IMG/VR virus record: IMGVR_UViG_3300045988_029198
Location: 1-58,013 of that record
Source: a virus
Taxonomy: Duplodnaviria > Heunggongvirae > Uroviricota > Caudoviricetes
DNA: 58,013 nucleotides
Reading direction: 5' to 3' (one strand)
A program made the translations under genes and the position numbers. Of the stretch, positions 43,701-55,242 are shown in pieces; the stretch's first letter is position 1, and every line of letters begins with the position of its first letter. The notes beneath the pieces are model-generated. The model worked only from the letters and a program-made list of their open reading frames with translations, searched no databases and was not told where the DNA came from.

Positions 43701-43739
43701 GTTATGATTTATCCGTGGTCAAACAAGAAGGGTATGATA

Positions 43740-44516
43740 ATGAAAAAGAACCTTTTAGACGAATTGATAGATTTAAAAGGCGGGGTACAAAATGCTGTTG
43801 AATACCTTAATCGTCGAGGTGTTAAGGTGACTGTTGGTCGTTACAACCAATGGTTGAGCGGTAGGTTTCATCCTAAATATGAAACGATCAGTATTATTCT
43901 TGAAGAGATTACTGACTTCACACTGTCACCCTTGCCAGTACAACATTCTGACGAAAACATTGTTCTTAAACACACAATACCGGTTACCGAACTGCGTCAG
44001 AAATTACCACACAGGCGTTTTGCTAATAACTACTGGCAACGTGTCAGATACGTTGATTCACAGATCCTGGAAGCTGTTCACGGTCACGACGTGTGGACAC
44101 GGTTTGAGGCGATGTGTGGTAATTTTGAATGCGCAAGATACGTGTTACGCAGAAATTTAAACGAACACACAATTACTGACAGTTGGATTCAGAATGGTTT
44201 GCGCCGGGGATGGGTCCCGGAATGTGTAAATGTAATGGCCGATTTGCTTGAAAAATACGAAGGCACCGGGACACCGTTTAACGTGATGGTTTGTGAAGCA
44301 CCTGTAGCACGAGTGGAACCACCTGTAGCACGAGTGGAACCACCTGTAGCACGAGTGGAACCACCTGTAGCACGAGTGGAACCACCTGTAGTCGATGTCA
44401 GCGATTTGAAGGAGAAAATCAGACTGTATGCGTTATCACACAACCCGCATTGCGATGTAGATAATATGCCTGATGATGTTGTTTTGATGATGTATAAAGA
44501 TATGATGGGTCAATAA
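43740..44516 (+). CDS. putative DNA-binding protein (N-terminal HTH-like) with (PVARVEP)4 tandem repeat
   Basis: ATG at codon 13 of track ORF with GAAGGG upstream; start ambiguous between 43704, 43734 and 43740. Confidence 0.45.
   Translation: MKKNLLDELIDLKGGVQNAVEYLNRRGVKVTVGRYNQWLSGRFHPKYETISIILEEITDFTLSPLPVQHSDENIVLKHTIPVTELRQKLPHRRFANNYWQRVRYVDSQILEAVHGHDVWTRFEAMCGNFECARYVLRRNLNEHTITDSWIQNGLRRGWVPECVNVMADLLEKYEGTGTPFNVMVCEAPVARVEPPVARVEPPVARVEPPVARVEPPVVDVSDLKEKIRLYALSHNPHCDVDNMPDDVVLMMYKDMMGQ
44299..44393. repeat. 21-bp tandem repeat, ~4.4 copies, in-frame
   Basis: cacctgtagcacgagtggaac repeated head-to-tail. Confidence 0.9.
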
Positions 44517-44520
44517 AGAT

Positions 44521-44547
44521 AGCGGGGTAGTTAGCCCCGCTTTTTTG
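44521..44547. terminator. rho-independent terminator between convergent genes
   Basis: gcgggg-tagttag-ccccgc then TTTTTT. Confidence 0.7.
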
Positions 44548-44742
44548 TTAGTATTCGTCGCTATCATCCTTGTCATTGTATTCGATAAAATGACCCAATC
44601 GTTGTAATTCAGCACCTGCCATGAAATAACCTAGTGCGTCTGCTCTTTCGGAATCATTTTTAAATTCAGAAAGCGGATAACGTTCATAGAATTTATTAAT
44701 CAAAAGTGCTTGATCGAATTTTGTTGCATCATGATTCTTCAT
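44548..44742 (-). CDS. hypothetical acidic protein
   Basis: track ORF 64 aa. Confidence 0.4.
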   Translation of the reverse strand: MKNHDATKFDQALLINKFYERYPLSEFKNDSERADALGYFMAGAELQRLGHFIEYNDKDDSDEY

Positions 44743-44805
44743 CCGTACACCTCATAGAAAACGTGCGCCACATAGAGCGCACTGATAATTAATATGAACA
44801 GGTAG

Positions 44806-45060
44806 TTATTCACTTTTCAGGCACTCTACGCAAGTGCCGTTGATGAAGTGATGTTTGTGGTTGCTGAGGCTTTCGAATTGCTGGTTGGTGGTGTCACAAT
44901 CGTCTGCTATTTTGTTCAGTATCCCGTAAGAATGAGAAACCAGCGAATTAAATTCATCATCACTGATTACCGGTACAGGGACAAATCTAATCCCGGCATG
45001 TGCAAGACTGTTTGCCATTTCAAGACATTTGCGTATTTCTACAGGCGATGCTTTATTCAT
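44806..45060 (-). CDS. hypothetical protein
   Basis: ATG at codon 3 of track ORF, 2 nt after HD gene stop. Confidence 0.4.
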   Translation of the reverse strand: MNKASPVEIRKCLEMANSLAHAGIRFVPVPVISDDEFNSLVSHSYGILNKIADDCDTTNQQFESLSNHKHHFINGTCVECLKSE

Positions 45061-45062
45061 AA

Positions 45063-45632
45063 TCACAGATTCCCCATCGCTTTAACCAGCGCGTCGTAGT
45101 GTTTGTCAAACGCGGTTAACTGGACGTTCGTTAGTTTGTATTTGGCTTTAAACAATTCACGCTCAACAAGCGCGTATAACTCCTGGTTGCTTGCGTCTGA
45201 CAGATGAGCAAGCATGAGTTGTTTTTCAGCCAGGTACGTTACAGCAAACTTCGGATCGTGTCGGACAATTGAAGATGTGTTATCCAGCAGATCACACAGT
45301 TTTATAGTTTTCACCACAGGTTCAGCCCGTGATAAATGGTCGATATCCCGTGCTTTACGCTTAACACGGTTGCCGTGGTGTGGACGACTCACATCAGTAA
45401 GCTGATCAACATAACGTGCCACAGTCTCACCGAACTGCGAACACACATCACCCACGGTCACTGGCGTATCTTCAACGACGTCATGCAGCCAGGCAGCGGT
45501 AACCATATCCGGCGTACCACCATAGCGTTTAACCAGTTCAGCAACGTTCCGGCAGTGGTTCACATATGGGTCGTTGGTGTACTTACGAAGTTGATCACCG
45601 TGTGCGGCTGTTGCGAATTGTTCAGGTGTCAT
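45063..45632 (-). CDS. HD-domain (p)ppGpp hydrolase-like protein (small alarmone hydrolase-like)
   Basis: 189 aa; RelA/SpoT-type HD motifs AHGDQLRKYTNDPYVNH, AAWLHDVVEDT, KTIKLCDLLDN. Confidence 0.7.
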   Translation of the reverse strand: MTPEQFATAAHGDQLRKYTNDPYVNHCRNVAELVKRYGGTPDMVTAAWLHDVVEDTPVTVGDVCSQFGETVARYVDQLTDVSRPHHGNRVKRKARDIDHLSRAEPVVKTIKLCDLLDNTSSIVRHDPKFAVTYLAEKQLMLAHLSDASNQELYALVERELFKAKYKLTNVQLTAFDKHYDALVKAMGNL

Positions 45633-45916
45633 GATGGTTGTACCTCAAGTTTTATAGCGAATACTTTCACTGGATTATTTCCGAAAAATTCATGATTGAT
45701 TGTTTTTATTTCATAACCTCGATAGTGCATATTCAGAATCCGTTCGTTGTCATCTTTGCGCGGATAACCACGAGTGATGATTAACCTGTCATAGGTTCGG
45801 TTAATTAAACGTTTTTCCAGTAGTCATTGAACAAACGGTATTCTTCGGTTTTTTTCACCATTTTTAATCTGGTCAAAGTATTTACCATTAACGGCAAGTT
45901 GAAGTTTAGTGCTCAT
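45629..45916 (-). pseudogene. ASCH-like ORF interrupted by a single in-frame TGA (codon 31, at 45824..45826)
   Basis: one frame reads MSTKLQLAVNGKYFDQIKNGEKNRRIPFVQ-TGA-LLEKRLINRTYDRLIITRGYPRKDD...KLEVQPS; final stop overlaps HD gene start. Confidence 0.4.
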
Positions 45917-45918
45917 AT

Positions 45919-46182
45919 TCAATACCCTTTTAATTTTCTACACTCAGGACAGCGCCATCTACCTTTTTGGTAAACTCGCGTATGACCACGTTTACATTTA
46001 TTGGTTACCAGTGATATACCGAGACGTGACGCTTTAATGTGCACCGCTTCAACGTCCCGGCGAAGGTGATACGCTATTTCGTCCGCACTGATCTTTCCTG
46101 CATTAATTTTTAATAACGCCAGATCTCGTGCGGACCACTTCAAACCGTTACGAGGGAACCTGTTAGTCTGATACTCATACAC
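45919..46182 (-). CDS. putative DNA-binding protein (HTH-like plus C-terminal CPEC zinc ribbon), GTG start
   Basis: GTG at codon 27 of track ORF with AGGTGA RBS; SARDLALLKINAGKISADEIAYHL HTH-like segment. Confidence 0.4.
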   Translation of the reverse strand: MYEYQTNRFPRNGLKWSARDLALLKINAGKISADEIAYHLRRDVEAVHIKASRLGISLVTNKCKRGHTRVYQKGRWRCPECRKLKGY

Positions 46183-46186
46183 GAAC

Positions 46187-46378
46187 TCACCTTTTACGAA
46201 GCTGTATGGCAAATTCACGGATAGTGTCATCAAGGTCTGGACATAACAGATTGTCAGCAAACATCTCTACCCCCTGTGCCCGTACTTCAGCCAGAAAAGC
46301 ATCGGTGGCTGGGGTTTTGCAGGACGTTTGAATTGTCTCCTCTGTGTATAAAACACCCGTTCGATTGGCGGTATACAT
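46187..46378 (-). CDS. hypothetical protein (overlaps 46287..46541 in another frame)
   Basis: track ORF 63 aa; no clear RBS. Confidence 0.3.
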   Translation of the reverse strand: MYTANRTGVLYTEETIQTSCKTPATDAFLAEVRAQGVEMFADNLLCPDLDDTIREFAIQLRKR

Positions 46379-46541
46379 GATGTGCTGATTTCACAGCCTC
46401 AACTTCAGCAGCCAGCGCCGCACATTTATTTTCAAGTTCACCAAATTTGCGTACCAGATATTCAGCGTTTGTTTCGTTAACTTTCAGATCACCCGGGACA
46501 CATTTACCACGAAGAAAACCTTCCATTTCGTACACAGTCAT
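46287..46541 (-). CDS. hypothetical protein (true 3' end uncertain)
   Basis: track ORF 84 aa; ATG directly after upstream stop. Confidence 0.35.
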   Translation of the reverse strand: MTVYEMEGFLRGKCVPGDLKVNETNAEYLVRKFGELENKCAALAAEVEAVKSAHHVYRQSNGCFIHRGDNSNVLQNPSHRCFSG

Positions 46542-46766
46542 TTAACGCACCTCGACATCAATCATTAAATCTTCTGGTACTGTCACCACAACGCGGTCGT
46601 TTTCGTAAAATGGTGATAGCGGTTCCTCTTCCGGTTGTAAGCGAATGGTAAGTGTTGCCCCGTGGTAATTGATATAGCGTACCCAGTACCATTCGTTAAA
46701 TACTTCAATCTTGTCACCTGGTTTAATATCACGGGCAACGGTTGGATTCATCAGTCGGATAGTCAT
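46542..46766 (-). CDS. hypothetical protein
   Basis: track ORF 74 aa, GGGAG RBS. Confidence 0.45.
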   Translation of the reverse strand: MTIRLMNPTVARDIKPGDKIEVFNEWYWVRYINYHGATLTIRLQPEEEPLSPFYENDRVVVTVPEDLMIDVEVR

Positions 46767-46924
46767 TTCTTTTTACTCCCGGTTAGTTTGGCAATCCAAC
46801 GATTTTCATTAACGCTGGGGAAACTATTATTGAATTTACACTGATGTTCTTCTTCTTTTGTCAACGGTTTAAATTTAGAACGACAGGTCAATGTACCGTA
46901 AATTGATGTTAAGTTGTCTGACAT
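46763..46924 (-). CDS. small ORF (53 aa)
   Basis: below track cutoff; fills gap after ParB-like gene; ATGA overlap with next gene. Confidence 0.3.
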   Translation of the reverse strand: MSDNLTSIYGTLTCRSKFKPLTKEEEHQCKFNNSFPSVNENRWIAKLTGSKKK

Positions 46925-46929
46925 AGTTT

Positions 46930-47697
46930 TCATAACTGGTGCTCCTTCAGTGCTTTTAACGCTTCGAACTGTTCAGCGGTAAGTTCAACCAGTACTTTAC
47001 CACCTTCCGAACGGGTTACAGACCGTTCACCACGGATTGCTTCCACTGCAGACCGTACCAGTTTAGCAGGTGGACGACGCGTTACTACTGGTTCTTTATC
47101 ACCTGCTTTAAACTGGCGAATGGCTGCTGATGCGCTGATTTCACCGTTCTGAATACGACGTTTAAGTTCCAGCGGCATATCAAGAATATTCAGTTGTTCG
47201 TAAACGTGTTGGACGGTTTTACCGACCTGTGTAGCGATCTGCTCAACACTCATACCATATGAACGGAAACGACCGTAAATAACAGCACGTTCAACGGGTG
47301 ACCACGGTTTACCCTCATTACCTTTTAACAGTGTCAGGGTCTGTTGTAGTTCGTCACCGGACGATTCAACAACGTCTACTGTCAGAATCGGCGTCCCGGC
47401 CTCAATAGCTGCCAATACGCCACGTAAACGATGCTCACCATCCTGAACATAAGGAACACCATCAACAACCTGTACCACGATCGGTGGAACGAAATCGCCG
47501 TTGGTATAAGCCTGACGAAAGTTTTCAATGTGTGCCAGTGCTGCTTCAGTTTCCCAGTAGTTGTCGGTAAATACACCGCGTGGGTTATGTCCTGGACGAA
47601 TCTTGATAATACGCGGATCAATGCGATATGCGTTACCACGTTTTACGTTGGTTTTATCGGTATCAGATAGCTTGCGAAGGGAGTTAATGTTAGCCAT
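46930..47697 (-). CDS. ParB-like nuclease domain protein
   Basis: 255 aa; ParB N-domain motif VQDGEHRLRG; own promoter copy upstream. Confidence 0.7.
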   Translation of the reverse strand: MANINSLRKLSDTDKTNVKRGNAYRIDPRIIKIRPGHNPRGVFTDNYWETEAALAHIENFRQAYTNGDFVPPIVVQVVDGVPYVQDGEHRLRGVLAAIEAGTPILTVDVVESSGDELQQTLTLLKGNEGKPWSPVERAVIYGRFRSYGMSVEQIATQVGKTVQHVYEQLNILDMPLELKRRIQNGEISASAAIRQFKAGDKEPVVTRRPPAKLVRSAVEAIRGERSVTRSEGGKVLVELTAEQFEALKALKEHQL

Positions 47698-47731: not shown

Positions 47732-47775
47732 ATTATCGGGTGGGGTTGGTAATCTGTCAAGAATTATTTTGAACT
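47732..47775 (-). promoter_or_regulatory. conserved promoter module copy (minus strand) for ParB-like operon
   Basis: reverse complement gives AAAATAATTCTTGACA, 17-bp spacer, GATAAT -10; 8-bp-stem hairpin in the 5' UTR. Confidence 0.65.
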
Positions 47776-48200
47776 ATCAGAGGGTAGATTTCGAACCAGA
47801 ATACCACGGGGCGTTCAATCACTTGAAGCAGTCCGAAACGTTCAGCCGTGCGAAAATTAACGCTGTATGACCTAGCGCGGTTTACTTGTTCACCGATTTG
47901 TTTACGGAATTGTTCCAGCGTATACGTAGTTTTAAACAGATTACAAGGTGCACAAGCTGGGTACAGATTTTCAAGAACATCATTATGTTCCCGATAATGT
48001 TCTCCGGTTGCTTTTAGTTTCCATAAACCTTTTTTAGCCGCGTCCATATCCTGTTCAAGTTTACGATAAACAGCCTGAACATGGTCCGCGTGCCAGCCTT
48101 TTTCCGGCAACAACTGACCACAGTAAGCACAATACCCGCCGAATTTCATACGCAGTTCCTGACGCTGTTTTTTAGACAGTTTCACGAGTAAGGCACCCAC
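47757..48200 (-). CDS. HNH endonuclease
   Basis: 147 aa; CAYCG ... HADHV ... N ... PACAPCN. Confidence 0.7.
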   Translation of the reverse strand: MGALLVKLSKKQRQELRMKFGGYCAYCGQLLPEKGWHADHVQAVYRKLEQDMDAAKKGLWKLKATGEHYREHNDVLENLYPACAPCNLFKTTYTLEQFRKQIGEQVNRARSYSVNFRTAERFGLLQVIERPVVFWFEIYPLIVQNNS

Positions 48201-48577
48201 ACAGTTAAACCAGCTTTCAACATGCGACGGTGCATATCAGCAGTACCACGCCCACCGGGGAACACAACACCGTATGTAGGCCGTGGTTCACCCTCTAACA
48301 TTGCCTGATTACGTTGATGACCTGCAACAGCGTTATAAGGCCCGTGCTTGCCCTGTTTTACAACTGCACCTGGTACAGTCAGATCGTCCCACGCTGCCGG
48401 ACAACTACGCACAGGAATACCGTGTAATTGCGCCCATTGCTTACACAGGTTATCAACACCTAACGCACCACCTTCAATTAGTTCGGTAATGGGGAATTGT
48501 TTGTGAAGTAGTCCTAACGCGGAAAATACTGCTGTTCTGTCGTTGAAGTCACGACCACCTGTAACGACTATTATCAT
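48182..48577 (-). CDS. SLOG-superfamily protein (DUF2493 / YspA-like Rossmann fold)
   Basis: 131 aa; VVTGGRDF ... IEGGALGVD ... VVFPGGRGTADM pattern. Confidence 0.6.
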   Translation of the reverse strand: MIIVVTGGRDFNDRTAVFSALGLLHKQFPITELIEGGALGVDNLCKQWAQLHGIPVRSCPAAWDDLTVPGAVVKQGKHGPYNAVAGHQRNQAMLEGEPRPTYGVVFPGGRGTADMHRRMLKAGLTVWVPYS

Positions 48578-50417: not shown

Positions 50418-52772
50418 CTAACCGTTACTCGCAGGTGGGAAAGGCACTACATTAGCTGTTGATTGAAAATGGAGAAGACGAATACCCCTGAAACCGTTTA
50501 ATCGTACGTTATTTATATTAACAACGTCTTTTTTCACTTTACCACGAAGGGTGGATTTAAACGCCCGACTAAATGCAGTTTTAGTCATTGCTGGACCACC
50601 TTCCTGTGTTTTCCAAAGACGATAACGACCATAGAGTTCTTCAGTATGTACCTCACCATCAGATACCAATTCGCAACAATCTCTGATAAAACTTCTAAGT
50701 GGTGATTGTTGATCCATAATTTCCTGACGTTCTTCCAGACTTGCTTTTGGTTCAGTAAACCGTCCGTTTGCACGTAACCGTTGTAAACCTTCAATCGCCC
50801 AGTTACAGATCCCCGGTAGTTCTTTCATCAGTCGTGCTTCCAGAGTGGTATCTTCACGACCCAGGAACGAAATGTTGAATGGCAGGATCAGCAAACGGTT
50901 AGCCATTGCACCTGAATCATCAGCAAATGCCGGTATGTTGTTAGCAGCCAGTGTCATACGTCCCGGTAAACGACCGTTCCACGCACCTTTATACTTACGA
51001 TTAACCGGAATCGCATCACAACCTGTAATAGATTTGAAACGGTCCAGAATTCGGTTGCGATCAGGCCCGGACACACTGTGAGCATCACCAATAAACAGCA
51101 CAGATTTATCCAGCACAGTTTCAAGTACCGCATCACTGGCTAAACCCTCTAGTGTGATCCCTGCATACGCTTCATCACCTACCAGTGCCTGAATGATGCG
51201 ACCAATCGTACCTTTACCGGAACGTGGTGCACCAATCAACAGCATCGCTTTCTGATAGTCATACGAGTTGACAAGCATGTAACCCAGCCATTCCTGCAAC
51301 AATGCAATACGTTCCTGATCACCTTCCAGAGTTGTATTTAAAAACTGTTCAAACGCTGGTGCACGGGCAAACGGATCATAGCTATATGGTAAAATACTGG
51401 TCGTAAAGAAATCCGGGTTATGTGCGTCACATTTACCAGTATGTACATCCAGTATCCCGTTCTGGCAAACAATATAGTGTGATACATCAACGCCGGGCCA
51501 TGTTCCAAGCTCACGATCAGCCCGTGTGAATAAATACGACAATACCTTGTACGTACCATTAATCATGTCGGCTTTTGGTTCGCTGGCAAGCATTGCCATA
51601 GATATCTGATGTTTCAGTTCATCTTCACTGACACGTTCCCACACACGACCATTGAACCGGTACGGCTGTTGCTGGACGAAAATCAATGTGTTGTTCGGAT
51701 AATAGTTATTAACGAACGTGGATGCGTTAACCGTGTGGTTTGAACCATATGCACCTTCACCGGGTTTCACACTCATGTACGCAGGTGTTCCACCATTAGG
51801 AACGACGGTAGGCGCTGGTGTGACTGCTTTCATCAGTTCTGGTGTCATTGTCGGTTGACTACGATACACAGCATCACAACGTTCCACAGCGCCCAGAATC
51901 GTGTTTTCACGGTAATCCTGACGATCTGTCCATTTACCACGAACCAGCCCGGAACGGTTAAACAATCGTTCAATACGTTCGCAATCTTTCCCGGTCCAGA
52001 ACGCAAGGTGTGAACACAGGGCAGCATCTGCTGCTGATGCGTTGTAGTCTTTCCCCTGGTCACTAGGATATGACACAGACAGGCGTTCAACGTTTGCATT
52101 CCACAGATCCGCAAATGACGCTTTATTGCCAAATACTGAAGCAGCACTGGACGAATTTAACGCCATTTTAATCAGTTCATCGTCGTCTGTCGGTCCTGAC
52201 CAGTCATCACAAGGTGCTGTTGTCCAGCGTGCGGAACGGTCTGAACGGATACGACCATACCGGGCAATAGAATCATGAATACCCTGGGTATAATCAATAT
52301 CAACATCACCATTACCCGTGAGCGTCATCGCGACGAAACGATCACGCCAGTACATTTCCAGCCCGGTTTTCTGGTCGTTCAGACTGTTAAAACCTTCCGG
52401 TATGCTGGTATAAGCACAGATGATATGCAAACCTGTTCCTGACTGACTGACTTCGGTGTACGCGTTTGGAAAACGGTTTACGAATTCATGCGCCAGTGGT
52501 GACCACGTAGCTGTTGCCTGGTCTATCAGACAGTTATCAACATCAATAAAGAAGTACGGATCGTTTTCTGTGAATACAAAACCAACACCAGACATACCGT
52601 ACATTTGTGCCATACCTAACGCGGTGTGATAGTCAGACCAGTCGTTAGGGTTAGTGGTACTGGCTTTATAACCATGTACCGGACTGTATGGTACTTTCGT
52701 TGGTTTTTGACGATCGGCGACTGTCTCAAGTCGCCACATGACCCACTGTTTACGGTTCAGTAACCCTTTCAT
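50418..52772 (-). CDS. DNA primase/helicase (D5-like: primase-polymerase N-domain plus SF3 helicase)
   Basis: 784 aa; Walker A GAPRSGKGT in C-terminal half. Confidence 0.75.
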   Translation of the reverse strand: MKGLLNRKQWVMWRLETVADRQKPTKVPYSPVHGYKASTTNPNDWSDYHTALGMAQMYGMSGVGFVFTENDPYFFIDVDNCLIDQATATWSPLAHEFVNRFPNAYTEVSQSGTGLHIICAYTSIPEGFNSLNDQKTGLEMYWRDRFVAMTLTGNGDVDIDYTQGIHDSIARYGRIRSDRSARWTTAPCDDWSGPTDDDELIKMALNSSSAASVFGNKASFADLWNANVERLSVSYPSDQGKDYNASAADAALCSHLAFWTGKDCERIERLFNRSGLVRGKWTDRQDYRENTILGAVERCDAVYRSQPTMTPELMKAVTPAPTVVPNGGTPAYMSVKPGEGAYGSNHTVNASTFVNNYYPNNTLIFVQQQPYRFNGRVWERVSEDELKHQISMAMLASEPKADMINGTYKVLSYLFTRADRELGTWPGVDVSHYIVCQNGILDVHTGKCDAHNPDFFTTSILPYSYDPFARAPAFEQFLNTTLEGDQERIALLQEWLGYMLVNSYDYQKAMLLIGAPRSGKGTIGRIIQALVGDEAYAGITLEGLASDAVLETVLDKSVLFIGDAHSVSGPDRNRILDRFKSITGCDAIPVNRKYKGAWNGRLPGRMTLAANNIPAFADDSGAMANRLLILPFNISFLGREDTTLEARLMKELPGICNWAIEGLQRLRANGRFTEPKASLEERQEIMDQQSPLRSFIRDCCELVSDGEVHTEELYGRYRLWKTQEGGPAMTKTAFSRAFKSTLRGKVKKDVVNINNVRLNGFRGIRLLHFQSTANVVPFPPASNG

Positions 52773-53580: not shown

Positions 53581-55242
53581 TCAGATTAATGAACTTGCAA
53601 CCCTTGCGGCGAGTTCATTAGCTTCACGAGTACGTAACCCCTGAGCGCTAAGTACATCAACACCAAACACCCTGTAAAACATCTTGTAAGCGTCATCAAC
53701 GGGTATACCTTTATCACGCTGAATACCGGCCCATGTGGTAATCATGCTACGTAATTTACGTTGTGCATCGTTCATTGCCTGAATGTTTTTCATTGCACTG
53801 TAAGCTGCAACAGGGGGTGCACCAGCGTTTAACATTTGTTCTTTTACCGCAACAGGGTCACGGTCGATTATCACAACTGCCCTGCGTAATTCTTCCAGTT
53901 CTTCAGGTGTCAGTTCACGTAAATTACCTTCTACACGATCCGGGCCTGAGCGTTCGGCTTTTTCAGGAACATGACCACAATACGGGCAGCACGGCAGACC
54001 AGACGGATAAGGCTTCAGACACGGTGGAATACCGTTATCAGGATCACCCTTGTTTGTACACGTTGTGTTACTGTTCCCACTGCTGTTTGATGAACGACGG
54101 TCACGGTCATCTAAAGACCAGTTGTAGTGCTGATCGGGAAGTGGAAAACCACGGGCCAGAAATCGACGAACATTACCGACTTTATCAATAATCAGTGCTT
54201 TTTTACCGGGTTTGAAACGCAACGGTCGGCCCATTTGTTGTACAAACAAAGAGTAAGATTCTGTTGGACGGTCCATTACAGCACATTCCATCGCCGGGCA
54301 ATCGTACCCTTCACCGAATAAATCGTTGTTACATAGCACGAGTGTTTTACGTCGTTCAAAACGTTCCAGAATATCCGCTCGTTCCTGATTGCTGTTTCGT
54401 GAGCTGATCGCCTCTGCAGGAATGCCAGCATCGCGAAATTCTTTTGCCAGTGCTTCAGCAGAATCTACGTCACACGTAAAAACAACAGTGAGTAAGCCAT
54501 CTGCATATGTTTTCCACGTACTGACGGTATCACCAACGATGTTTGAATCTTCCATCGCTTTTTTTAACGCAGAGGGTTTGTAATCACCCGTAGTATGGGA
54601 AATCATTTCTACAGTTAATTCCAGGTCTGTTTCAGCCATAATCAGGCGATAATCAGCCAGGTGTTGTTGACTGATTAACTCACGCATTGACGGACCAATG
54701 ATCATCTGATCTGCGTAACCTGACGCATGACGACCCAAGCCTTTACCGTCAGCACGGATCGGTGTAGCTGTAACACCCAGACCTTTAGCGTTAGGGAATT
54801 TTTCCCGGCAGTCTCCCCACTGTGTGCCACGCACCAGGTGATGCGCTTCGTCGCTGAACACAAGAGACACGTCGTTGTACCATCGTTCGTACTGTTTTGT
54901 TCTTAACGTTTGTGAACTGGTAATAACGATGTCAGCACCGGGGGAATAGGTACTGTAACCAAGCGTTTTCATCTGCTGATTAGTTGCAAACTTAACAGTA
55001 TCTTTTTGCGCTATAAATCTGTGTGGTAATCCCTGGCGAGCAACAGCCATTGCGATTTGACTAACCAGTTCTTTACGGTGTGCCTGGATGACTTTTACAC
55101 CGTCTCTTGTTTTTACCAGTTCAGACATACAGAACGTTTTTCCTGCCCCCGTGGGAAGCACAAGAATCACGTCGTCAGCACCGCTTGACCATGCCTGACA
55201 TACGTTATTGATAGCTTCAGTCTGATAATAACGAGCTTTCAT
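53581..55242 (-). CDS. superfamily 2 DNA helicase (DEAD/DEAH-box, ResIII-like) with C-terminal zinc ribbon
   Basis: 553 aa; Walker A PTGAGKT, DEAH box FSDEAHH, CCPYCGH. Confidence 0.75.
   Translation of the reverse strand: MKARYYQTEAINNVCQAWSSGADDVILVLPTGAGKTFCMSELVKTRDGVKVIQAHRKELVSQIAMAVARQGLPHRFIAQKDTVKFATNQQMKTLGYSTYSPGADIVITSSQTLRTKQYERWYNDVSLVFSDEAHHLVRGTQWGDCREKFPNAKGLGVTATPIRADGKGLGRHASGYADQMIIGPSMRELISQQHLADYRLIMAETDLELTVEMISHTTGDYKPSALKKAMEDSNIVGDTVSTWKTYADGLLTVVFTCDVDSAEALAKEFRDAGIPAEAISSRNSNQERADILERFERRKTLVLCNNDLFGEGYDCPAMECAVMDRPTESYSLFVQQMGRPLRFKPGKKALIIDKVGNVRRFLARGFPLPDQHYNWSLDDRDRRSSNSSGNSNTTCTNKGDPDNGIPPCLKPYPSGLPCCPYCGHVPEKAERSGPDRVEGNLRELTPEELEELRRAVVIIDRDPVAVKEQMLNAGAPPVAAYSAMKNIQAMNDAQRKLRSMITTWAGIQRDKGIPVDDAYKMFYRVFGVDVLSAQGLRTREANELAARVASSLI

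Follow-up and report, generated by a model that had tools for sequence, protein, structure and literature searches.

What does a coliphage gain from a small enzyme of the RelA/SpoT type? The question is raised by a gene at positions 45063-45632 of the virus record IMGVR_UViG_3300045988_029198, whose 58,013 nucleotides we refer to as the window. An original prediction, made from the letters of the sequence, had described the product as a phage-encoded HD-domain (p)ppGpp-hydrolase-like protein that could blunt the host stringent response or alarmone-based toxins and defences during infection. The predicted span is exact, as it coincides with an ATG-started open reading frame (ORF) of 189 aa on the minus strand. 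Immediately 5′ of the gene this strand reads GAGGTACAACCATC-ATG, and the block GAGGTACAACCATCATG around the Shine-Dalgarno motif is the same in the related phage KarinMuster (Bas82), the DNA farther upstream being unrelated. Given the ATG-started ORF at these exact coordinates, the good Shine-Dalgarno motif and the ribosome-binding block kept in Bas82, the ORF and its coordinates are real, on evidence far above chance. The coordinates of all features are collected in Table 1.

To define the enzyme class, we compared the protein with domain, family and structure databases. The results indicate that the gene very probably encodes a single-domain, stand-alone RelA/SpoT-type hydrolase, that is, a small alarmone hydrolase (SAH). 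Pfam HD_4 (PF13328) matches residues 5-127 with an E-value of 3.9e-15 and 56.3 bits (gathering score, 27.2 bits), and the only other Pfam match, the generic HD family, is barely above its cut-off. In the NCBIfam model TIGR00691 (spoT_relA), only positions 4-122 of 687 are aligned (E 1e-20), which corresponds to the hydrolase domain alone; models of long RelA/SpoT homologues (RSH) likewise align with only their first ~120 positions. A length of 189 aa excludes room for a synthetase, TGS or ACT region. The hidden Markov model (HMM) check proposed with the original prediction thus supports it, both for the presence of RelA/SpoT-type HD motifs and for the lack of a synthetase or regulatory domain. 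The PHROGs database places the protein in phrog_990, “metal-dependent phosphohydrolase” (1e-38), and the PADLOC defence-system models gave zero matches to it. In a sequence search of the PDB, all significant matches were RSH hydrolases, namely Lmo0812, human and fly MESH1, the N-terminal domains of Rel and SpoT, RelH and the Pseudomonas aeruginosa SAH (PaSAH), the weakest kin being the (p)ppApp hydrolase Aph1; E-values ranged from 1e-13 to 1e-15 for MESH1 and Lmo0812 to 2e-5 for PaSAH and 7e-3 for Aph1. An AlphaFold2 model built with 63 homologues is an all-helical, single compact domain of very high confidence (mean predicted local distance difference test score, 97.5; predicted template modelling score, 0.92). 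When this model was compared with the PDB by Foldseek, the best 50 matches were all RSH hydrolase domains, with MESH1 first, in agreement with the near-invariant motifs described below. The leading MESH1 entries superpose with root-mean-square deviations of 2.0-2.4 Å over ~169 columns, one of them at 2.1 Å with template modelling scores of 0.77/0.81.

The catalytic residues of SAHs have been assigned to six motifs, in which the HD1 Arg and the HD6 Asn place the base, the HD2 His, the HD3 His-Asp and the HD5 Asp (plus Arg/Lys) are associated with the Mn2+ ion as its ligands, and the HD4 Glu-Asp pair serves the attack on the 3′-phosphate (Bisiak et al., PMC9293644). Using MESH1 and the family alignments as guides, we found all six motifs in the protein, as R16, H26, H50-D51, E54-D55, D114 and N118. 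In the 63-sequence family alignment seven of these eight residues are invariant, and position 55 is Asp in 62 of the 63 sequences. On the plus strand the HD3 and HD4 codons appear as gtcatg (45480-45485, H50-D51) and atcttc (45468-45473, E54-D55). Since the motifs are intact, and since the same DLLDN sequence around HD5 and HD6 occurs in the in vivo-active PaSpo enzyme of Salmonella phage SSU5, the enzyme looks catalytically competent, as judged from its sequence. The metal ligands H26 and D114 are flanked by Cys27 and Cys113, which we considered as a coupled, clade-specific redox or metal feature and ruled out as a strong signal, each Cys occurring independently elsewhere; the position 27/113 pairs among the 63 sequences include C/C in 5, P/C in 8 and C/A in 3.

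We then asked to which group of SAHs the protein belongs. Of 50,697 phage records searched by tblastn, 346 contain homologues, 10 of them holding orthologues at 90-99.5% protein identity; the wider family comprises 1886 database clusters at E < 1e-5, with a typical length of ~167 aa. The next best characterised homologue is SSU5_099 of phage SSU5 (52% identity over residues 6-147 in a 145-aa BLASTP alignment, E 1e-45), and several phage proteins without characterisation reach similar scores. The PbcSpo-type candidate of phage PVP-SE1, gene 220 (record positions 136782-137291), matches at 36% identity over 73 aa (E 5e-6); it is equated with the published SAH of that phage by inference, from a search of the genome outside bases 50001-96000, in which bases 1-50000 hold no SAH homologue. 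Given an E-value of 1e-45 to SSU5_099 against 5e-6 to the PVP-SE1 candidate, the protein thus belongs to the PaSpo subfamily as far as pairwise scores tell, a placement distinct from one by the subfamily HMMs or the tree of Jimmy et al. 2020. Three distant homologues, in two phage contigs and a Burkholderia prophage remnant, are stand-alone genes too. In one of these contigs, of metagenomic origin, at positions 4469..5531 of the retrieved locus, the PaSpo-like gene lies directly 3′ of a gene for a MazG-like PRA-PH pyrophosphohydrolase, within a nucleotide-metabolism cluster containing thymidylate synthase, dCMP deaminase and DNA polymerase A. This SAH-MazG pairing may be recurrent.

The kinship with SSU5 matters for function. 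PaSpo(SSU5) neutralises all tested toxic small alarmone synthetases (toxSAS), namely CapRel, PhRel, PhRel2, FaRel2 and FaRel (Jimmy et al. 2020, PMC7229694). FaRel is a producer of (pp)pApp; FaRel2, PhRel2, PhRel and CapRel are tRNA-pyrophosphorylating toxSAS, and PaSpo(SSU5) strips the pyrophosphate that FaRel2 installs on the tRNA 3′-CCA end. The enzyme has also been co-expressed to permit the production and purification of CapRel-SJ46 (PMC9712102). CapRel is found in prophages of E. coli, Salmonella, Klebsiella and Enterobacter, and phage capsid proteins trigger its tRNA pyrophosphorylation. That phages employ SAHs to get around alarmone-mediated defence was already proposed in 2020 (Jimmy et al., PMC7229694), and similar genes have been noted in other phage genome papers, e.g., that of Pseudomonas phage Adele. 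Our literature searches found neither an infection-level test of any phage SAH nor a direct measurement of (p)ppGpp hydrolysis for PaSpo enzymes. The hedged function given in the original prediction agrees, by analogy, with the published activity of PaSpo(SSU5), and can be refined, because the best-documented substrates of this nearest relative are toxSAS products, (pp)pApp and 3′-pyrophosphorylated tRNA.

SSU5 PaSpo (SSU5_099, AFL47026.1) resembles the window protein in being a stand-alone phage HD_4 protein with identical catalytic motifs, DLLDN included, and its own gene likewise does not lie beside a synthetase gene. It differs in being 24 aa longer, with an internal insertion, in a C-terminal region of 40 residues that can hardly be aligned, and in having Pro/Ala at positions 27/113; it also comes from a 103-kb phage, reported to be of phage-plasmid type, whereas the gene described here lies in a 58-kb siphophage. 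The best structural match to the predicted model is MESH1 (human and Drosophila; 3nr1, 5vxa, 9chy, 3nqw; template modelling (TM) score 0.75-0.81, root-mean-square deviation 2.0-2.7 Å over ~170 residues), which shares the single-domain architecture and the HD1-HD6 residues but is metazoan, only 27-28% identical, and has Asp-Lys instead of Asp-Leu at HD5. MESH1 hydrolyses (p)ppGpp and pyrophosphorylated tRNA, and both MESH1 and ATfaRel restore aminoacylation of such tRNA in vitro. The PbcSpo-type SAHs (C. marina ATfaRel and the PVP-SE1 SAH) are also hydrolase-only RSH proteins with published toxSAS neutralisation, and the PVP-SE1 enzyme is, like ours, the product of a stand-alone phage gene (PMC7229694); they form another subfamily, and ATfaRel is part of a three-gene toxin-antitoxin operon, whereas no toxin partner accompanies the gene here. 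Aph1 (7smg), from a Bacteroides temperate phage, is a phage-borne monofunctional HD-domain alarmone hydrolase as well (PMC10083569), but is remote from our protein (phmmer E 0.007, TM ~0.5, 20% identity). It is (p)ppApp-specific, without (p)ppGpp activity, and acts as an immunity protein against its cognate MuF-fused synthetase toxin, whose gene lies upstream of its own (PMC10083569). Finally, bacterial SAHs (P. aeruginosa SAH, 6yvc; C. glutamicum and L. levettii RelH, 7qod and 7qoe) share the fold (TM 0.64-0.71) and the Mn2+ site architecture, but are chromosomal housekeeping or competition enzymes of 22-25% identity; at HD1, PaSAH has Leu where the Arg is kept here.

We next considered the genome in which the gene resides. 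The window is a Nonanavirus/Sashavirus-type E. coli siphophage of 58 kb and 43.3% GC, related to KarinMuster_Bas82, PJ16, PDP46, AVIO78A, 536P12 and BDX09P1. The SAH gene stands on the minus strand in a long string of co-oriented genes, among them those for a helicase, a primase, a ParB-like protein, a SLOG-domain protein and an HNH endonuclease as well as a run of small genes, and this string ends at a hairpin facing a convergent gene. Annotated terminators occupy the equivalent position in Sasha and AVIO78A. Upstream of the ParB-like gene, a sigma-70-like match may, on weak evidence from a consensus scan, serve as promoter of the distal operon with its SAH gene; promoter-like sites in the scanned region are fewer than in shuffled controls, which weakens this candidate.

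Carriers of the gene comprise six E. coli isolates and two Salmonella drafts (SP-062 and SP069), and the protein is 97.9-99.5% identical in six related coliphages (99.5% for the Bas82 copy). No SAH match at E 1e-20 or better was found in Sasha, Sergei, Solent, 9NA or the Klebsiella relatives, whose operon backbone is 97% (Sasha, Sergei, Solent) or ~80% (9NA and the Klebsiella relatives) identical; in Sasha, only three small genes separate the ParB-like gene from the terminator. Among Bas82, PJ16, PDP46, AVIO78A and SP-062 the SAH block is 96-98% identical while its flanks differ. The gene has a GC content of 48.8%, compared with 43.3% for the genome, which places it in the top 4% of same-size windows. 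Pairwise ratios of nonsynonymous to synonymous substitution rates (dN/dS) are 0.02-0.16 across the partial SP-062 gene and five orthologues that are intact and full-length, which places the gene under purifying selection. In BDX09P1 the copy (1501..2072 of the retrieved locus) is 2 nt longer, frameshifted after about residue 49 and interrupted by multiple stops, which reflects either natural inactivation or an assembly error. Given the shuffled flanks, the patchy presence and the low dN/dS, the gene is an accessory cassette of a hypervariable operon tail, maintained by selection although phages can do without it. Such a location is no more than suggestive of a counter-defence role. A megablast search of the PLSDB plasmids gave zero matches, so that there is no evidence for a phage-plasmid origin, despite the ParB-like neighbour and the kinship with SSU5. 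The BASEL paper reports “no recognizable additional locus” in the extra genome content of KarinMuster, and the words alarmone and phosphohydrolase are missing from its main text.

Based on the conserved residues and the predicted fold, we hypothesized that H26, H50, D51 and D114 hold one Mn2+, that E54 and D55 activate a water molecule for attack on the 3′-pyrophosphate ester, and that R16 and N118 position the purine base, such that the 3′-pyrophosphate would be removed from (pp)pGpp or (pp)pApp. By analogy with the 52%-identical SSU5 enzyme, the protein probably also takes the pyrophosphate off toxSAS-modified tRNA 3′-CCA ends. The gene order suggests that it would be co-transcribed on the minus strand with the replication and ParB-like genes. 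By erasing what the RSH enzymes of host or prophage make, the protein would sustain translation and metabolism in the infected cell; the best-supported targets would be toxSAS defences such as CapRel, and RelA/SpoT-made (p)ppGpp or (p)ppApp toxins would come second. Taken as a whole, we consider it probable that the protein is a PaSpo-type, Mn2+-dependent 3′-pyrophosphohydrolase used against alarmone- or toxSAS-driven growth arrest of the host. As the main target in vivo, we give toxSAS products a somewhat higher weight than RelA/SpoT-made (p)ppGpp, by analogy with the demonstrated activity of the nearest relative and because the patchy distribution resembles that of host-specific counter-defence. 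More tentatively, and with less confidence than the general statement deserves, the gene may be an anti-defence gene of strictly lytic enterobacterial siphophages that, during infection, repairs tRNA 3′-CCA ends pyrophosphorylated by capsid-triggered toxSAS of the CapRel type and also removes (pp)pApp and (p)ppGpp; which prophage-armed strains can be infected would then depend on whether a phage has the gene.

Several observations weigh against this interpretation. The residue following the HD5 Asp is Leu (L115), where Arg or Lys is usual, and all 63 family members have L, I or V at position 115; “D-hydrophobic” HD5 variants have been noted before, and their effect was called unknown (Bisiak et al., PMC9293644). 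A counterweight is that the experimentally active SSU5 PaSpo also reads DLLDN. The gene is missing from the close relatives Sasha, Sergei and Solent and is frameshifted in BDX09P1, and is thus dispensable on some hosts. In the accessible part of the BASEL paper, no toxSAS system is named in the panel. Moreover, substrate preference (G, A or tRNA) is not readable from the sequence, and a similar fold leaves the substrate unfixed, MESH1 being reported physiologically as an NADPH phosphatase.

One rival keeps the enzyme and changes its main job to the hydrolysis of (p)ppGpp made by host RelA/SpoT, which would suppress the stringent response, sustain rRNA synthesis, translation and replication, and leave toxSAS as secondary targets. 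The nearest solved relatives indeed include the bona fide (p)ppGpp hydrolases MESH1, Rel, SpoT, RelH and PaSAH, the gene is co-oriented with replication genes, one distant homologue stands beside a MazG-like pyrophosphohydrolase gene and nucleotide-metabolism genes, and phage infection has been linked to alarmone accumulation (PMC7229694). The activity documented for PaSpo is, however, the neutralisation of toxSAS, and patchiness among near-identical phages fits host-specific counter-defence better than a general physiological need. We therefore regard this possibility as rather unlikely, although the two roles are not mutually exclusive. A MESH1-like preference for a non-alarmone 3′-phosphorylated metabolite, such as NADPH or 3′-phosphoadenosine 5′-phosphosulfate (PAPS), would instead reprogram host cofactor pools. 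This idea draws on the best structural matches, human MESH1 with NADPH (5vxa) and with PAPS (9chy), on the report of MESH1 as an NADPH phosphatase, and on a bacterial orphan SAH that hydrolyses NADPH besides alarmones (PMC9765508); but that bacterial enzyme is ~40-fold less efficient on NADPH than MESH1, which was attributed to a missing nicotinamide-riboside motif (PMC9765508), and our protein is 27-28% identical to MESH1 compared with 52% to PaSpo, making such a substrate improbable.

Could the protein serve as antitoxin or immunity partner of an alarmone-synthetase toxin made by the phage itself, as in ATfaRel-FaRel or Aph1-Apk2? Such pairs are known, including in temperate phages (PMC7229694; PMC10083569), and a Phage_Mu_F domain is present in one ORF of the set covering the second half of the window (26748-57316), a set in which no ORF exceeds 784 aa and whose Phage_Mu_F member was not among the eight ORFs that were re-scanned. 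Yet a Pfam scan of 53 window ORFs of at least 105 aa, for which both family lists (20 and 22 families) are complete, revealed no RelA_SpoT synthetase domain (PF04607). In addition, the neighbouring DUF1382 and phrog_625 genes are swapped in relatives while the SAH gene stays, the small neighbours show nothing toxin-like, the likeness to Aph1 is marginal, and the three distant homologues also lack a synthetase neighbour. We thus rejected this highly improbable arrangement, the gene being an orphan accessory gene instead. Equally far-fetched is the idea of a protein that lacks catalytic activity, or of a passenger gene in decay, with no role in infection: although it is in line with the BDX09P1 frameshift, the absence of the gene from several close relatives and the disrupted neighbour genes in the window, it is at odds with the intact catalytic residues, the dN/dS values, the conserved ribosome-binding site and the very high confidence of the predicted fold.

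The gene adds one more, expected member to a class already described, phage stand-alone SAHs being an established category. Its database names vary from “polyphosphate hydrolase” and “metal-dependent phosphohydrolase” to, wrongly, “RelA/SpoT family (p)ppGpp synthetase,” and the proper annotation would be a small alarmone hydrolase of the PaSpo family. Should the enzyme act as its SSU5 relative does, phages of this group possess a general means of erasing the products of RelA/SpoT-family toxins, namely (pp)pApp, (p)ppGpp and pyrophosphorylated tRNA. Prophages of E. coli, Salmonella and Klebsiella do defend against phages with toxSAS such as CapRel, and if the anti-defence interpretation is true, the system would offer the first natural infection-level demonstration that a virus enzymatically reverses a toxSAS immune effector. 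Near-isogenic phages with and without the gene are already in public collections, and a convenient test bed is provided by the BASEL phage KarinMuster (Bas82), which has it, and by Sasha, Sergei and Solent, which naturally lack it.

Table 1. Positions of the SAH gene, its catalytic codons, candidate expression signals and operon context in the window
Feature	Position	Strand	Basis or remark
SAH coding sequence (PaSpo-like, 189 aa, stop codon included)	45063..45632	minus	ORF listing, ATG start
Shine-Dalgarno GAGGT, ATG 9 nt downstream	45642..45646	minus	direct sequence reading
HD_4 catalytic core (residues 5-127)	45252..45620	minus	Pfam envelope, helical HD fold in model
R16 codon, motif HD1 (stacks on substrate base)	45585..45587	minus	aligned to MESH1 RRK; invariant 63/63
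H26 codon, motif HD2 (metal ligand)	45555..45557	minus	invariant 63/63
H50-D51 (HD3, metal ligands) and E54-D55 (HD4, catalytic pair) codons in HDVVED	45468..45485	minus	
D114 (HD5 metal ligand), L115 and N118 (HD6) codons in DLLDN	45279..45293	minus	D114 and N118 invariant
GC-rich hairpin where convergent genes meet, candidate bidirectional terminator at the operon end	44521..44541	.	consensus scan only
Variable accessory tail of the primase/ParB-like operon, holding the SAH gene	44548..46933	minus	context only
ParB-like protein	46930..47697	minus	
Sigma-70-like promoter match TTGACA-17-GATAAT (11/12), upstream of the ParB-like gene	47732..47760	minus	consensus scan only
Primase	50418..52772	minus	
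Helicase	53581..55242	minus	

The genes adjoining the SAH gene differ between relatives. Directly upstream, a gene at 45629..45922 (minus strand), whose stop overlaps the SAH start (ATGA), is split into three short ORFs; after repair by deletion of an A in an A7 run and insertion of an A in an A5 run, it encodes 95 aa that match phrog_625 end to end (E 1.8e-39). In PDP46 the A5 frameshift is shared and the first site is an intact A6, so that the broken gene is either a pseudogene or the product of homopolymer sequencing errors. A fragment of this gene is annotated in PDP46 as “RNA-binding protein”; we rejected an ASCH-type RNA-binding protein, as the gene has no Pfam match and matches only phrog_625, of unknown function. 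The downstream neighbour (44806..45066, minus strand) encodes a DUF1382 protein (PF07131, E 3e-21, first 42 residues) with a Cys/His-rich C-terminal extension, HKHHFINGTCVECLKSE. Sequence matching this gene lies downstream of the SAH gene in PDP46, PJ16 and BDX09P1, adjacent to it in PDP46 and BDX09P1, and in Bas82 an unrelated gene follows. Farther upstream, at 46187..46541 (minus strand), overlapping ORFs of 63 and 84 aa match consecutive parts of phrog_614, where the gene order of Bas82 shows one gene of 129 aa; a second gene of the operon tail has probably been split here by a frameshift.

The same operon also encodes, at 48182..48577 (minus strand), a 131-aa predicted nucleotide-binding protein that matches the Pfam family YAcAr (YspA/cpYpsA-related SLOG family, E 1.7e-19) and phrog_289, “GTP-binding domain,” a type of gene annotated in Bas82 as well. 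A link of this protein to nucleotide signalling is possible. The HNH endonuclease gene lies at 47757..48200, and three ORFs with T5orf172/MUG113 (GIY-YIG-like) and CapR-homology domains and two with DUF723 suggest several insertions of the homing-endonuclease type in the genome. No tRNA genes were found in the window, and the phage thus does not supply substitute tRNAs.

Outside the operon, a gene at 5869..8868 (plus strand) encodes a 999-aa tailspike of the K1-type endosialidase kind with all parts of that architecture, namely End_N_terminal, beta-propeller, beta-barrel, End_tail_spike and S74 chaperone domains (E down to 5e-233). The predicted target of the phage is accordingly E. coli with a K1 (polysialic acid) capsule, in contrast to Bas82, which depends on O16. 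Facing the SAH operon, a convergent plus-strand ORF of 270 aa (43704..44516), for which we found no Pfam match, contains four tandem copies of a PVARVEP heptad and a fifth, degenerate copy; inside the equivalent gene of Sasha, gp81, a “direct tandem repeat region” is annotated.

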